DNA from: Myxococcota bacterium
GTDB taxonomy: Bacteria; Myxococcota_A; UBA796; UBA2385
Length of the DNA: 64,000 nucleotides
Assembly: GCA_044344255.1 (NCBI GenBank)
Contig: JBIJDH010000014.1
Coordinates: 140,313-204,312 of the forward strand
Direction: 5' to 3'
The notes under the pieces were generated by a model. That model was not told where the DNA came from. It searched no databases and saw only the letters and a list, made by a program, of their open reading frames with translations. The translations under genes and the position numbers were made by a program. Shown piece after piece: positions 49,263 through 55,100 of this stretch (position 1 is its first letter; the number at the start of each line of letters is the position of its first letter).

Positions 49263-50252
49263 ATGGACCCCTCCGACAGCGTCGAGCGCTACATCCTCAC
49301 CGGCACGGTTGACCCCACCTTCCCCGACTGGCCGGGCGGGCTGGCGGAGCGACGGCGGCAGGGCGCGCAGACCTTGCGGGCGGTGCTCTGTCGGGTGGTG
49401 GCCTGGCGGGCCCGCCAGTCGCCGATGGCCGGGGCGCGGCTGCCGATCGACGTCGAGGGGGTCGTGCGGGCCCGCGTGTCGCCGATGCTGCGCGGCCTGT
49501 TCTCCCCCGAGGAGGCAGAGGTGCTCACCCGCTCGCTGCCGCCGCGGGTGGTGGTGCTCACGGCGGGCACCTTCCCGGCGGCCGCCGAGCGCGTGCCGCT
49601 GGAGGCGGCCTGGGACCTCGCCAACCTGCTCCTCGACGACCTCCGGGTGCCCACCCTGGCCGACGACGTCCCCGAGCTGCTCGGCCTCTGCGCCGGGGGC
49701 CGGGCCTGGGTGCTGCCGCGGGCCCTGCGCGCCGCGCCGCTCGCCAGCGGCGCCAATCCCAACAGCGGCGCCGTCGGCACCGACGTGATCGTCCACGAGG
49801 TGGCCCACCTGCTGCACATCGTCCCCCGCGGCGAGCTCGGCCTGCTGCCACCCGAGGGGACGGCGCTCGCGGTCCCCGCCCGCCGCCGCGAGACCTTCGC
49901 GTACGCCGCCGAGGCCTGGGCCTGCCACAGTCGAACGGGGGGCCCGCCCCTAGGGGAGCTCCACCTCGGTCGAGATGACGCCCGGGTCGACCCCGAGGCC
50001 CTCGCCCGGCTCCTCCAGGAGGCCGAGGCCACGGCCGACGGGCCCGGGGGAGGCTGGCCGGCGCTCCGCCGCTGGGCCGAGGGCGGGCGCGCTCAGCGCG
50101 CGGTGACGCTCAAGGTCCCCGAGGGCGAGGCCTCCGCCGCCGCGCCGCCGTCGAGCCATTCGGCCCCGGCGGCCTCCCCGCGGAGGGCCTCGGCGAAGAA
50201 GGCCACCGCGACAGCGCCCGTGAGCCCCTTGCCCGCCGCGGGCGCGAGGTAG
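49263..50252 (+). CDS. hypothetical protein with HExxH zinc-peptidase-like motif
   Basis: VIVHEVAHLLH followed by RETFA; 3' end overlaps the convergent gene by 160 nt. Confidence 0.6.
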   Translation: MDPSDSVERYILTGTVDPTFPDWPGGLAERRRQGAQTLRAVLCRVVAWRARQSPMAGARLPIDVEGVVRARVSPMLRGLFSPEEAEVLTRSLPPRVVVLTAGTFPAAAERVPLEAAWDLANLLLDDLRVPTLADDVPELLGLCAGGRAWVLPRALRAAPLASGANPNSGAVGTDVIVHEVAHLLHIVPRGELGLLPPEGTALAVPARRRETFAYAAEAWACHSRTGGPPLGELHLGRDDARVDPEALARLLQEAEATADGPGGGWPALRRWAEGGRAQRAVTLKVPEGEASAAAPPSSHSAPAASPRRASAKKATATAPVSPLPAAGAR

Positions 50253-51247
50253 GAGAAGGGCTCACCCCCCTCCTGCCGGGTGTCGTCTCCGCAGCCCGGC
50301 AGGAAGCCCGGCGTGAGCCCGACGAGGTCCGAGGGAGACCAATGGCCGGCGTCGGCCATGGTCACGAGGCGGGCCGGGGCGGTGGCCTCGGCAAAGTTCG
50401 ACGCGATGAGGGTGTTGCCGAGCACGCCCACGCTGTGGTCCTCGGCGAGGAGCAGGAAGAGCAGCGGCGACTGTAACGAGGCGACGTCCACGCCGGCCAG
50501 CAGCGGGTTCTCGGGGGGAGCCCCGACGAAGAGCGCCGCCTGCGGAGCCCCGAGCTCGGAGTCAGCGGCCTGTCGGTCCTGGAGGAGCTTGCCGGCGGTG
50601 ACAGCGCCGAAGCTGTGGCCCATCAGGCCGACCCGATCGGGATCCACCTCGACCCCGAGCGCGCCGGAGAGGGCGAGGTCGAGGGCGAAGCCGAGGTCGC
50701 CCACGCGGAGGGCGAGGGTGTCGGTGTCGAGCGGGAGCCCCGCCTCGGCCTGCTGGTCGAAGAGCGTGTCCCCCGCGTGGTCGGGGGCGACCACCACGAA
50801 GCCGTGGCTGGCCAGGCGCTCGGCCACCGTGGCGGTGGAGAAGCGGGCGCAGCCATAACAGTGGGACAGGGCGATCACCGGCCAGGGCCCCCCCTCGGCG
50901 ACGGGGGTGTCCAGGCCAGCCTCCAGCACCTCGCTCGGGCAGCCGGCCGGCGCGGCGTCGAGCAGGGCCTGATAGACCGCCCGGTCGCCCGGATCGGCGA
51001 GGAGGTCCGTCACGGGGCTCGGGGCGACCGAGCTCGCGGCGGGGTACCAGAGCTCGACGGTCAGCGCCCGCGCTCGGGCCAAGTCCTCCCCGCTCCAGGT
51101 CAATCGACCGGCCGCGTAGGCCCCGGGAGCCTCGGGATCGAATACCTCGGGGTCAAAGGGGGCAGCCCCCTCGGCGGCGCCGCTGTCCTCGGCCTTCCCA
51201 CAGGAGGCGAGCAGGAGGAGCCCCAGCGCCGCGCGACCCCTGCTCAT
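50093..51247 (-). CDS. alpha/beta hydrolase lipoprotein (PAF-acetylhydrolase/dienelactone hydrolase-like)
   Basis: lipobox LASC, VELWYPA, LASHGFVVVAPDH, GHSFG, AGH. Confidence 0.88.
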   Translation of the reverse strand: MSRGRAALGLLLLASCGKAEDSGAAEGAAPFDPEVFDPEAPGAYAAGRLTWSGEDLARARALTVELWYPAASSVAPSPVTDLLADPGDRAVYQALLDAAPAGCPSEVLEAGLDTPVAEGGPWPVIALSHCYGCARFSTATVAERLASHGFVVVAPDHAGDTLFDQQAEAGLPLDTDTLALRVGDLGFALDLALSGALGVEVDPDRVGLMGHSFGAVTAGKLLQDRQAADSELGAPQAALFVGAPPENPLLAGVDVASLQSPLLFLLLAEDHSVGVLGNTLIASNFAEATAPARLVTMADAGHWSPSDLVGLTPGFLPGCGDDTRQEGGEPFSYLAPAAGKGLTGAVAVAFFAEALRGEAAGAEWLDGGAAAEASPSGTLSVTAR

Positions 51248-51269
51248 TCGCCAGCTCCGTTTCATCGGT

Positions 51270-54257
51270 TCAGTCCACCTGATAGGAGACGACCACCGCC
51301 CGGTGGTCACTCGGCCAAGGGTCGGCGTCATAGACATAGGCATCGAGCGGGGTCAAGTGGAGCGCGCCGTCTCGACCATACACAAAGTCAATCCGGTCGT
51401 GCACGTCGTCCGCCTCGAAGCTGCCCTTGGGGTAGCCGGCGGTCCAGGTGAGGCCCCGATCGAGGGTGGGGTCGGGGTGGACCGCCCGATAAGCGTCCAC
51501 GAAGCCGCCCTCGGCGAAGGCGACCGAGCTCGGCCAGGCCACGACGAGATCAAAGTTCTGATCGGCGTTGTCGGCGGTCCAGTCGAGGTGGGAGGGGGCG
51601 TTGTGGTCGCCGAGCACGATCGCCGTGTCGAGGCCCTCGAGCAGGCCGAGCACCGCCGCGGCGTCGTCCCCGCGCACCCGCCCCTCGGTGTGCTCGATCT
51701 CCTCCACCGAGGCGCCGTCCCGCGCGAGGTAGGGCCCGTACTCGGTGTAGTCGAAGTGGGTGCCCACCACGGTGATGTCACCCCGATCGGGCAGGGAGAG
51801 GGTGGCGAGGAGGGAGTAGCCCCCCGGGTCGCCCACGGCGCCCGACAGCGGGAAGCGGGACAGCAGGACGTTGTCGGAGCCGTCGTCCACCGTCATCGCC
51901 CCGGCCCAGGCCGGGGAGAGGGCCACGACGGCGGCGAGCAGCTCGGCGGCGAAGGCTGGGCCGCCCTCCTGGAGGGCGACGAGGTCAGGGTCGCAGGCCA
52001 CGATGGCCGCCGCGATCTTGTCGACCCCGCCCGGCACCGCGCTGCCGTCCAGCCAGGAATTGAAGGTCATCACGGTGAGGTCGCCGACCGCCGCCGGCGG
52101 GACGCGCTCGCCGGGATCGGTCACCCGAAAGGGGGCTCGGGCCATCACCTCGTACCCATCGGCGAAGAAGAGGCGGGCCTCCCAGTCCCCTGCTGGCAAC
52201 CCCACGGGCAGGAAGCGGAGCCGGCCGCCGACAGGGCCGCCCTCTCCTGCCGACTGACTGCCGTTCGTATAGAGCCAGGCGGCGCTGCCCTGGTTCTCGG
52301 TCTGGTCGGCTGGATAGAGCCCCACCCAGTCCGTGGCGGCGCCGCTGGCCCCGGCGAAGGCCACCATCAGCCGCTCGCCCACCTCGTACTCCGCCTGGTC
52401 GGTGGAGAGGTTGGGCCCCGCCTCGCCGCTGTCCTGCGGGGCCGTGTCTCCGCCGCCCCCGTCGCCCCCGCCGCCGTCGATGCCCGGCCCATGGCCCTGC
52501 CGCTTGACGCCGGGGTCTGCCGCGCCGCAGCCCACCAAGAGGGAGAGGGACAGCAGGCCGATAGAGGGGCGACGGCGGCGACCGAGGGCGAGCAGCGCCG
52601 AGAGGGCGAGCCCGAGCGAGGAGCCGATCGGGGCGACCTGACAGCCCCCCTTGCCGGTGTCGGCCAGGGAGACGGCCGCGCCGGGGGGCTCTCCGTCTCG
52701 CGGGCCCTCCAAGCCTCCGCCCTCGCCGGCGGCGTCGGTGTCGAGGCCGCCTCCGTCGCCGCCGTCGGTCGCCCCGTCGGCGCCGCCGTCCGTCGCCCCG
52801 TCGCTCCCGCCGTCGGTCCCGCCGCCGTCGGACTCCTCCGCCTCGACCTGCACCGTGAGGGTGAGGAAGCCGTCCGCCGGCCCGCCTCCCCAGGGGATGT
52901 CAGCGAACCAGGTGACCCCGTCTTCGACCAGCGCCAGGGGAAGGCTGAGCTCCCCCACCTCTCCGCCGCGCACGGTGAAGGTGAAGGCCCCGGTCTCCCC
53001 CGGGGCGACGTCTGCGGCGGGGTGGGCGACGCGGGTGGTCGACACCCAGGTCTCGTTCGCCAGCGGAGAGGCGGCGTCCCGGGGCCAGGGGGCGAGCGAA
53101 GTATTGCTGGTCCAGGTCTCGGTGCCGTCATTCCGGAGGTCTACAGACAGGCTGACCTCCTCGCCCGGGTGCAGCAGGACGGGCACGCCCTCCGAGAAGC
53201 TCGCCGAGACCACGGAGGCCTGAAAGGGGGCCCCGGTCTCTCGGAGCTCGTCCAGGCGCGCATAGACGAGGTCACCCGGACAGGCGGTGGAATTCCCAGG
53301 CCAGTCCCGGTGGCCCTTCATCGTGTCGTCGTCGGTGACAAAGCTGTGCTCAGCGGCCAGGGTCTGGATGAGGAGGCGCGCGCTGACGATCATCGTGTCG
53401 GGCGGCGTGTCATACGAGCTGCCGCAGCCGCCGGAGTCAAAGCAGCCGAGGAAGCAGACGGCGATGTTGCCGTCGTTGTTTCCGCCGCCGGTAGCCCCCG
53501 ACTGGTACGTGAGCTCCCTCCCCTCCCACAGGCTGCCGTCGTAGCCGACGAGGTACTGATAGGGGATGTCGCAGTAGTCGCTGCCCATCGCGTAGGCCTG
53601 CAGCGCCTGGACGGCCCCCTCCACGGTGCCGCCGTAGGTCTCTCCCCCGGCGGTGTGGTGGATGGCCATCCGGTACCAGTCGTCCTCGGTGGTGCTGCAG
53701 GTGGTGCTGTCGGCCCCCCAGTCATCGCGCGAGGTGACGCCGATGGCCTCCATGCTGGGGCTGAGCGCGCTCGACGGCGGGGGCGGCGGGGCGCCGGGCA
53801 GCAGGCGGGGCTCACCGACGGGGTGCAGGAGCTCCCAGGAGAGGGCCTCGACCGCCCCCGCGCCCCGCACCCGCACCTGGGCGGCGAAGGCCTCGCCGTC
53901 GAGCTCGGCGCTGTAGACCCGGGCCTCCTCCCCCACCCAGAGCTCGGCGGCGGGGATCCAAGGCCCGAGGGCCCCGCCCTGCTCCACCCGCACCTCGACC
54001 ACGAGGCCGACGGTGGGCTCGATCTCGACGAGGGCGAGGAAGCGGGTGCCGCCCTCGGAGAACGCGCGCAGCCCGGACAGACCGACCGGCCCCCGCCAGG
54101 CCCAGCCCTGGGCGAGCGCGGCGCGGTCCTCCCGGAGCTCGGGGAGGACGTGGAGCGGGTCATCGAGCTCGAGCGCGGACGCCTCCCGGGCCGACAGGGG
54201 GCCGAAGGGCGACAGGACCGACAGGACGAGGAGGGGCGCGAGGGCAGAGAAGAGCAT
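51270..54257 (-). CDS. multidomain protein: type-2 (PGRP-like) amidase + Ig-like + internal MYXO-CTERM + lipoprotein signal + Ig-like + EEP nuclease/phosphatase
   Basis: AIHHTAG, DIPYQYLV..DGSLWEGR, GHRD..TACPG; MTFN, VALQE, LGDHN, DRIDFV, SDH. Confidence 0.85.
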   Translation of the reverse strand: MLFSALAPLLVLSVLSPFGPLSAREASALELDDPLHVLPELREDRAALAQGWAWRGPVGLSGLRAFSEGGTRFLALVEIEPTVGLVVEVRVEQGGALGPWIPAAELWVGEEARVYSAELDGEAFAAQVRVRGAGAVEALSWELLHPVGEPRLLPGAPPPPPSSALSPSMEAIGVTSRDDWGADSTTCSTTEDDWYRMAIHHTAGGETYGGTVEGAVQALQAYAMGSDYCDIPYQYLVGYDGSLWEGRELTYQSGATGGGNNDGNIAVCFLGCFDSGGCGSSYDTPPDTMIVSARLLIQTLAAEHSFVTDDDTMKGHRDWPGNSTACPGDLVYARLDELRETGAPFQASVVSASFSEGVPVLLHPGEEVSLSVDLRNDGTETWTSNTSLAPWPRDAASPLANETWVSTTRVAHPAADVAPGETGAFTFTVRGGEVGELSLPLALVEDGVTWFADIPWGGGPADGFLTLTVQVEAEESDGGGTDGGSDGATDGGADGATDGGDGGGLDTDAAGEGGGLEGPRDGEPPGAAVSLADTGKGGCQVAPIGSSLGLALSALLALGRRRRPSIGLLSLSLLVGCGAADPGVKRQGHGPGIDGGGGDGGGGDTAPQDSGEAGPNLSTDQAEYEVGERLMVAFAGASGAATDWVGLYPADQTENQGSAAWLYTNGSQSAGEGGPVGGRLRFLPVGLPAGDWEARLFFADGYEVMARAPFRVTDPGERVPPAAVGDLTVMTFNSWLDGSAVPGGVDKIAAAIVACDPDLVALQEGGPAFAAELLAAVVALSPAWAGAMTVDDGSDNVLLSRFPLSGAVGDPGGYSLLATLSLPDRGDITVVGTHFDYTEYGPYLARDGASVEEIEHTEGRVRGDDAAAVLGLLEGLDTAIVLGDHNAPSHLDWTADNADQNFDLVVAWPSSVAFAEGGFVDAYRAVHPDPTLDRGLTWTAGYPKGSFEADDVHDRIDFVYGRDGALHLTPLDAYVYDADPWPSDHRAVVVSYQVD

Positions 54258-54265
54258 GCCCGAGT

Positions 54266-54721
54266 CTACACGCGGAGAGGGTCCGCGGCCCGCGCGGTGG
54301 CCTGGCCGAGATCGGTCGCCACCGGGCTCCAGAGGCCGAGCAGCAGGGGCCCCACGCCCAAGAGCGCGAGCTTGTGGGCCTCTCCGACGACCACGAGCTG
54401 CCGCACACCGCCGAGCTTGACCGCCTCCGCGCGGAGCTGCGCCGCCGCGACCAGCTCCTGGGCGACGGCCGCGAGGGCCTCGGCGGAGGGGCCCTCCCCC
54501 GCGGCGGCGACCGGCAGCCCGTCGATGGCCGCGAAGGCGACGCCGACGCCCGGCCGCGCCGCGAGCTCGCCTACGAGCACGGTCACCGCCTCGATGAAGG
54601 CCTCCGGGCGCCGCCCGCTCGCCCGATCGGCCCGGTGGAGGGACTCGAGCGCCGCTACGCGGTCGGCGAGCCAGTGGGGGGAGCCGCCCACCGCGGCAGG
54701 GTCGCCCACCTCATCCGCCAA
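54266..54721 (-). CDS. roadblock/LC7-domain protein
   Basis: GVGVAFAAIDGLPVAA...ALAAVA...LGGVRQLVVVG pattern. Confidence 0.7.
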   Translation of the reverse strand: MADEVGDPAAVGGSPHWLADRVAALESLHRADRASGRRPEAFIEAVTVLVGELAARPGVGVAFAAIDGLPVAAAGEGPSAEALAAVAQELVAAAQLRAEAVKLGGVRQLVVVGEAHKLALLGVGPLLLGLWSPVATDLGQATARAADPLRV

Positions 54722-55100
54722 AGACGAGGTCGAGCTCGGGGATCGTCTCGCGGACCTCGTAGCGGACCGCGCCGAGCATGGCCGTGCTGTCGGCCACCAC
54801 CACCAGCACGAAGCCCCGCACTAGGGGGGCGAGGAGGATGAGCCCGTCCTTGTTCTCGGAGAGCACGAGCTTGGTGCTGCCCTGACCGACCTGCCCGGCG
54901 GCCTTCGCGGCGGCGGTGAACACGATCTGCACCGCGGCGCCCAGCGCGTCGGTGTCCACCTCGAAGTCCCGGCGGATGTGGGTCACGAAGCCGTCGGCGT
55001 CGACCACCGCGGCGGTGGTCACCCCGCGGAGGGAGACGAGGCTCTGCAGGGACTGATCGATGCGCTGGTTGCGCTCGGACTTGGACAGGGGTGCGCTCAT
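54711..55100 (-). CDS. roadblock/LC7 (MglB-like) protein
   Basis: GVTTAAVVDADGF, ALGAA, LVLSENKDGLILLAPL, LVVVAD..MLGAVRYE; GGAGG RBS. Confidence 0.88.
   Translation of the reverse strand: MSAPLSKSERNQRIDQSLQSLVSLRGVTTAAVVDADGFVTHIRRDFEVDTDALGAAVQIVFTAAAKAAGQVGQGSTKLVLSENKDGLILLAPLVRGFVLVVVADSTAMLGAVRYEVRETIPELDLVFGG

Follow-up and report, generated by a model that had tools for sequence, protein, structure and literature searches.

Among the nearest known relatives of the arrangement reported here are the proteins of the C-terminal MYXO-CTERM/myxosortase pathway (TraA, MXAN_4924; TIGR03901, NF040914). In the accessible part of Guo, Haft and Wall (2025, PMC11980579), to which our statements on that paper are confined, cleavage of C-terminal tags by MrtX depends on the Cys and also works in E. 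coli that has MrtX, lipidation, a cut beyond the Cys and export through a type II secretion system (T2SS) are proposed, and processing of internal sorting tags in other systems is cited. The same paper describes MXAN_5598 of Myxococcus xanthus, which has an internal MYXO-CTERM and is considered a probable two-gene fusion, its N-terminal part being proposed to be processed and surface-anchored; within the literature searched, this is the one internal MYXO-CTERM known in print. Here we describe an open reading frame (ORF) of 995 amino acids (aa; 102.7 kDa; 51270..54257, minus strand), free of internal stops, in a 64,000-nucleotide stretch of a Myxococcota bacterium (GCA_044344255.1, contig JBIJDH010000014.1, positions 140,313 to 204,312; the whole stretch is called the window below), in which a PGRP-type amidase is joined, through a MYXO-CTERM-like tag and a second, lipoprotein-type signal, to an EEP phosphodiesterase. 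We think it reasonably probable that two operon neighbours have recently been fused in frame by read-through and that the product works as a secreted two-product precursor; the single frame, the two intact signals and the startless second half are observed, and the processing steps are what we infer from them.

The ORF shares with the C-terminal pathway a tripartite tag after a low-complexity linker, an N-terminal signal, a myxosortase-family gene and GspD; unlike C-terminal substrates it continues for 432 residues beyond the tag, against a median of 1 in our survey (see below). In Bradyrhizobium japonicum, the cytochrome b-c1 precursor FbcH yields two membrane proteins from one gene by means of an internal signal-peptide-like linker; it differs in its signal peptidase I type cut, in the obligate complex partnership of its products and in having neither sortase tag nor lipid anchors. 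With MXAN_5598 the ORF has in common the tag in mid-protein and the proposed origin by gene fusion; the partner in MXAN_5598 is an outer-membrane barrel/OmpA module, whereas the partner here carries a lipobox, so that both products would be lipid-anchored. Neither a second signal nor a second product is proposed for MXAN_5598 in the accessible part of PMC11980579, where the word 'polyprotein' does not occur; the TraB-like internal cases in our survey share its layout, a comparison made by description only. In Haloferax, ArtA is reported to process an internal tripartite signal of the PGF type (review PMC9263693, accessible part), so that there, too, a sorting enzyme would use a tripartite signal that is not C-terminal; it differs in being an unrelated enzyme from another domain of life, and a second exported lipoprotein goes unmentioned in that part of the review. 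No title or abstract opening in the literature searched, which left subscription journals uncovered, describes a hairpin of tag plus second signal.

From its N-terminus the ORF encodes a signal peptide, the PGRP-type amidase, an Ig-like domain, a Gly/Asp linker, the MYXO-CTERM-like tag, the lipobox signal, a tether, a beta-sandwich and the EEP domain. An earlier note on this DNA had read its middle as an internal MYXO-CTERM anchor running directly into a lipoprotein signal, and the sequence is as quoted there: one minus-strand frame stays open, with neither stop nor ATG between C539 (52643-52641) and C577 (52529-52527). The tag (aa 537-563, 52569..52649, minus strand) has a complete motif, namely GGC539, a transmembrane segment with its hydrophobic peak at aa 548-558, and an Arg cluster, RRRR, at aa 560-563 (52580-52569), the place where the orthologues stop. 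Its TIGR03901 match (aa 537-563) reaches 17.9 bits (E 0.003; cut-off 20 bits), compared with 23 bits for one orthologue (P0004) and no match for another (P0003), and 432 aa follow it, where the orthologues carry the tag at the end. Directly behind it lies the second signal (aa 564-576 plus lipobox, 52527..52568, minus strand), which lacks a start codon of its own and whose best 8-residue hydropathy, 2.7, stands at the 39th percentile among this genome's lipoprotein-like signals. In the consensus for such signals a hydrophobic region is followed by the lipobox [LVI][ASTVI][GAS]C; L574-V-G-C577 fits it, as the note had proposed, in an internal position instead of an N-terminal one with its own start codon. 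The anchor claim thus stands for the Cys, the helix and the Arg cluster and falls short in score and C-terminal position; because the tag misses both and the second signal its position, the ORF appears to behave as a MYXO-CTERM substrate with a lipoprotein placed behind it, while being a regular member of neither class. The proposed hairpin, with RRRR between two hydrophobic stretches, also holds as a prediction, the ORF having hydrophobic peaks at aa 5-15, 548-558, 566-576 and 770-780, the last of which is a helix of the EEP domain in an AlphaFold2 model.

The only common start codons within aa 471-577 are TTG516, TTG574 and GTG575, the latter two sitting 2-3 codons ahead of C577, too close for use; a Shine-Dalgarno (SD)-like motif is absent from the junction, whereas 196 of 317 lipoprotein-like genes of this genome have one. 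With no ATG, usable GTG/TTG or SD-like motif, the EEP half, if made, would most simply come from the long precursor. Lipoprotein signals in this lineage can be very short (Cys at position 8-13, no basic residue; P0070-P0075, P0099), and 60 of the 317 lipoprotein-like candidates have no Lys or Arg before the Cys. The genome holds about 85 MYXO-CTERM tags: 86 of 90 tag-like matches lie within 55 aa of a stop, and the other four comprise two tag-plus-lipobox hairpins and two that we judged false. It also encodes GspD, a myxosortase-family protein (Mrt_core NF040914, 111.5 bits, cut-off 100) that scores below the MrtX, MrtC and MrtP subfamily cut-offs, one LspA (PF01252) and five Lgt-family matches (PF01790). 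The five Lgt-family matches (G000, L033-L037) stand beside one LspA in a genome with some 85 tagged proteins; the acyltransferase of the tag could be among these paralogues.

Contigs from 4 of 24 listed runs were compared with the window. One from X13, covering 51980-52803, and one from X9, covering 51404-52614, each match it with 0 differences and 0 gaps, so that the junction is bridged without stop or frameshift, and neither run is flagged as a possible source of the assembly. For X16 and X19, a contig bridging the junction was not found among the contigs listed; one X16 contig of depth 2 lacks 3 bases at 52600. Six contigs from three sources carry the exact protein, and a variant of 994 aa, present on 3 contigs, represents a second strain, 98.6% identical and likewise fused, with P564S and I566L at the junction. 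Because the X13 and X9 contigs bridge the junction unchanged and the second strain is fused too, an assembly error is unlikely as its origin.

Both enzyme assignments of the note are borne out. The N-acetylmuramoyl-L-alanine amidase of PGRP/T7-lysozyme type (aa 198-329, 53271..53666, minus strand) matches Amidase_2 PF01510 with 45.7 bits (Pfam cut-off 26), its closest solved structure is PGRP3 (4z8i, E 3.5e-13), and H200, Y233, H316 and C326 are unchanged across 21 sequences; by analogy with Amidase_2 and catalytic PGRPs, we take the two His and the Cys to be zinc ligands and the Tyr to be catalytic. The EEP phosphodiesterase of DNase I-like fold (aa 730-985, 51303..52070, minus strand) matches PF03372 (Exo_endo_phos) with 46.6 bits, above the Pfam cut-off, and has the full catalytic set (Asn, Glu, Asp-x-Asn, Asp, SDH; N733, E764, D884/N886, D957, D984/H985). 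By substrate it may be a nuclease, a phosphatase or a lipid phosphodiesterase; on this point sequence matches reach E 2e-4 at best, and a Foldseek search with the model gives TDP2 (E 3e-13), LINE-1 endonuclease and ExoIII as fold neighbours, the solved relatives listed being at 13-22% identity. The EEP gene is single-copy in the genome. The strains are distinguished by 5 of 510 residues in the mature amidase half and by 5 of 418 in the mature EEP half; an EEP half evolving 5-fold faster than the amidase has P 0.03 and one evolving 3-fold faster P 0.13, and all 5 EEP changes fall in columns conserved in at most 31% of homologues, which make up 44% of positions (P ~0.02). The EEP half therefore looks maintained, as far as these substitutions tell.

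Junctions of this kind recur with other partners, a search that the note had suggested. In P0049 the same amidase, with its tag and RRRR, runs into a signal resembling those of signal peptidase I, then a NAGPA domain and finally another tag, this one C-terminal; P0190 joins the amidase to a lipoprotein by way of the tag, a spacer of 21 residues, a retained Met and a lipobox. At L416 the amidase and NAGPA genes are separate and overlap by 4 bases, in contrast to the fused P0049/L417, with 46% identity between L416 and L417. This genome has a second hairpin, between a CotH kinase-like protein and a MopE-repeat lipoprotein (G000:C17:186724-190287, minus strand; L118); it is stop-free in G000, G003, G008 and G011 and readable in the frameshifted G019, the junction sequences differing, and the pair is split into overlapping genes in G002. 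Kept in this way across genera, it is a better-conserved test case than the amidase-EEP locus. For a survey of tags we took the 150 best TIGR03901 matches from 22 genomes, of which 143 had a tag call (7 uncounted): 134 tags were C-terminal (median tail 1 aa, with 2 tails above 20 aa) and 9 internal. All 9 internal tags lead straight into a signal-like segment, five of signal peptidase I type and four with a lipobox; none of the 143 was internal with a tail lacking such a segment. At a hydropathy threshold of 2.1, the segment was signal-like in 9/9 internal cases and in 31/60 downstream genes (Fisher P 0.008). Selection on the junction topology is thus suggested, not strongly. A profile built from five junctions and run over 151 genomes retrieved chiefly ordinary C-terminal tags; six further hairpins (L230, L240-L243, L245), found among the profile loci and 20 additional stretches, were left out of the 9/143 because they are biased by the query. 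Another survey, by a degenerate DNA pattern in 22 family genomes, was dropped, its hits being as frequent as in the reversed control and mostly non-genes. Fusions of adhesin, tag and signal to TraB-like barrel/OmpA proteins are common in the class (L181, L292, L328, L330, L331; also L240-L242 and L245), and L269 and L297 look split. One pair of neighbours in this genome stands a single change from fusion, with tag, stop, one codon and an in-frame lipoprotein ATG (L119:940-2320 = G000:C59:5440-6819, plus strand), and similar in-frame near-fusions occur on G000:C52 and C50.

The amidase orthologue is present in 13 of 40 relatives: 10 stop after the tag and 1 does so across an unresolved base, while 1 diverges ahead of the tag and 1 ends at a contig end. 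The EEP gene was found with this query in 1 of the 40, a genome in which the amidase orthologue was not found. Of 57 amidase homologues in the protein collection, 56 measure 547-620 aa (the search started at 547 aa), and the nearest EEP homologues (55-64% identity) stand alone, with lengths of 398-440 aa. A short lipoprotein signal opens four of the top five of these; in stand-alone P0072 it aligns with the second signal of the fused ORF, the start Met excepted. Tag-fused EEP was not seen elsewhere among the best 150 matches of a profile search with the EEP alignment (1.84 billion representatives). Relatives carrying two separate genes had been named as grounds for giving up the two-product idea: both halves do stand alone there, yet the second strain is fused. 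A sister species in which the amidase and EEP genes are adjacent was looked for and not found, so that our picture of the pre-fusion junction is a reconstruction. In the closest amidase relative (G003, 65%), locus L002/L380 breaks into unrelated sequence before the tag and near a contig end, by misassembly or insertion, and therefore cannot show the ancestral junction. A 938-aa frame in G004 was rejected as a fusion, because the frame changes at an unresolved base and the tag stops in another frame.

The note had set an accidental gene fusion against a two-enzyme polyprotein. A recent read-through fusion is indeed what we favour; the two alternatives do not exclude each other, as the fusion would survive by staying processable. 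Sec would export the amidase, and signal peptidase I would take off aa 1-28; the tag helix would halt transfer, leaving RRRR in the cytoplasm, and the second hydrophobic stretch would restart export with RRRR as its n-region, placing the EEP half in the periplasm. Lipidation of C577 by Lgt and cleavage by LspA at G576|C577 would give a 43.4 kDa EEP lipoprotein, and lipidation of C539 with myxosortase cleavage beyond it would give a 52.7 kDa lipid-anchored amidase for surface display by the T2SS, a hairpin of 3.7 kDa being thrown away. Such fusions might arise easily, because the tail behind a tag is discarded anyway, and this one might be tolerated since, with the hairpin, the two enzymes stay outside and are separated by myxosortase and Lgt/LspA; fusions would persist only where the following gene encodes an exported product. 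Any gain would lie in 1:1 co-translation, for which no coupling of the enzymes, physical or functional, is needed. Cleavage into two membrane-anchored products is thus probable on the features of the junction.

Several observations weigh against this reading. The tag scores below its cut-off. Among 59 amidase loci in genomes, 47 stop after the tag, 1 is a fusion to another partner, 8 are cut short and 3 are tagless; an EEP gene was found at 0/59 of them, and an amidase at 0/80 metagenome EEP loci. RNA run X19 yields three 151-base pieces at a depth of ~2, none across the junction. The survey signal depends on the threshold, since a stricter hydropathy of 2.4 gives 6/9 against 22/60 (P 0.14); moreover, kin among the internal-tag cases are non-independent, and with 5 of the 9 in one TraB-like family, the partners of which are outer-membrane barrel/OmpA proteins, the survey amounts to about five independent events. 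The strain comparison comprises 10 substitutions, at the protein level only. As the halves stand alone in relatives and none of the 59 amidase loci has the EEP gene, the amidase-EEP fusion is, judged from these sequences, recent and known from one species.

It is unlikely, though worth serious attention, that the hairpin inserts and processing is partial or absent, myxosortase balking at a tag whose tail runs on into another helix or LspA at an internal lipobox, which would leave a two-helix inner-membrane protein with both enzymes in the periplasm or a hairpin-held amidase beside a free EEP lipoprotein. MrtX cleavage was demonstrated solely on C-terminal tags with a short FLAG tail, and partial surface arrival of uncleaved tagged proteins has been proposed (both in the accessible part of PMC11980579). 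The low tag score points the same way, as does the CotH/MopE junction of G003, which appears to lack the Cys motif of the tag. However, this ORF, its counterpart in the second strain and the majority of the other junctions retain both cysteines, and the partners in the TraB-like cases (5/9 internal tags) are outer-membrane barrel/OmpA proteins, which must leave the inner membrane; an active amidase trapped in the periplasm would presumably also endanger the cell's own wall.

We consider it improbable that an accidental read-through silenced the EEP, the amidase being processed normally and the C-terminal half discarded or decaying. The confinement of the pairing to this species would fit such an accident, as would the patchiness of the EEP subfamily (the 1/40 relatives above) and the in-frame neighbours of this genome that are one change short of fusion. 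The EEP changes are not in excess, though a 3-fold rate still has P 0.13 beside the P 0.03 of a 5-fold rate; they avoid conserved columns, and the survey contains no internal tag with a non-signal tail. Very improbable in our view is a separate EEP lipoprotein that arises by internal initiation at a non-canonical codon (ATC566, CTG568 or CTG569), with the long frame as a side product. The very short signals of close homologues imply that a start at 566-569 would yield a plausible signal, and the junctions of P0190 and L364 have kept a Met. ATC and CTG codons initiate translation poorly, however, an SD-like motif is absent before all three, the second strain has Leu at I566, and the long product would arise regardless, there being no stop. 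An assembly or sequencing error that masks a stop or frameshift, conceivable since the genome is a metagenome assembly, is next to negligible in view of the bridging X13 and X9 contigs and of the exact protein and its variant on 6 and 3 contigs.

The fusion that we favour might belong to something wider. We suggest tentatively, at somewhat less than even confidence, that Myxococcota have a general, unrecognised polyprotein route in which the hairpin of tag, Arg cluster and signal is a self-removing linker, one side of which is recognised by myxosortase and the opposite side by either LspA or signal peptidase I. Under such a route any surface-protein gene could absorb an exported neighbour by losing one stop codon, and TraA/TraB-like and CotH/MopE fusions would have been retained across genera. 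In its boldest form, amidase-phosphodiesterase fusions (EEP here, NAGPA in P0049) would have been selected as 1:1 prey-envelope digestion kits. The note had proposed just such a prey-digestion pair, which did not fare well: amidase and EEP were found together at this locus alone and the partner of the amidase differs from fusion to fusion, so we doubt a dedicated amidase-EEP pair; digestion of prey or debris would fit an operon of amidase, EEP and hydrolase, as conjecture. If the cleavage is real, one chain would give two differently anchored surface proteins by means of ordinary sorting enzymes, in parallel to viruses that use host signal peptidase, and about 6% of sampled tags (9/143), TraA/TraB-like proteins included, would be mis-annotated single proteins that are really two. 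The junction may also serve as a probe of a possible requirement of myxosortase for a short tail in the cytoplasm and of whether both cysteines are lipidated by Lgt, with the amidase-EEP locus as a young, single-species example of how such fusions begin.

The remaining features of the ORF are all on the minus strand. The N-terminal Sec signal peptide (aa 1-28, 54174..54257; peak at aa 5-15) has a predicted cut after A-S-A, and a short signal before LELDDP is also present in the nearest amidase orthologue. Behind the amidase follow a possible Ig-like domain of NBR1 type (aa 362-428, 52974..53174; PF16158, 17.6 bits, under the cut-off of 28) and the Gly/Asp-rich linker that precedes the tag (aa 473-535, 52653..52841). 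In the AlphaFold2 model of aa 564-995, most of aa 564-611 has a per-residue confidence (pLDDT) below 50, and behind this disordered tether a beta-sandwich (Ig-like) domain (aa ~616-713, 52119..52412) is built from strands at model residues 53-150. The next gene (50093..51265, minus strand) begins 4 bases past the stop of the fused ORF and is probably in the same operon; it encodes an alpha/beta-hydrolase lipoprotein (PAF-AH_p_II, DLH and chlorophyllase matches) with its own start and lipobox, and is not fused. The runs that best match the genome are lake and freshwater metagenomes, and the organism, an uncultured lake bacterium, is assigned to the Myxococcota by the names of homologues, its roughly 85 tags and its myxosortase-family gene. 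Directly upstream of the fused ORF (54266-55100, minus strand) lie two tandem Roadblock/LC7 (MglB-like) genes, which are themselves preceded by a gene with an OmpA domain and by a fusion of Ser/Thr kinase and FGE.

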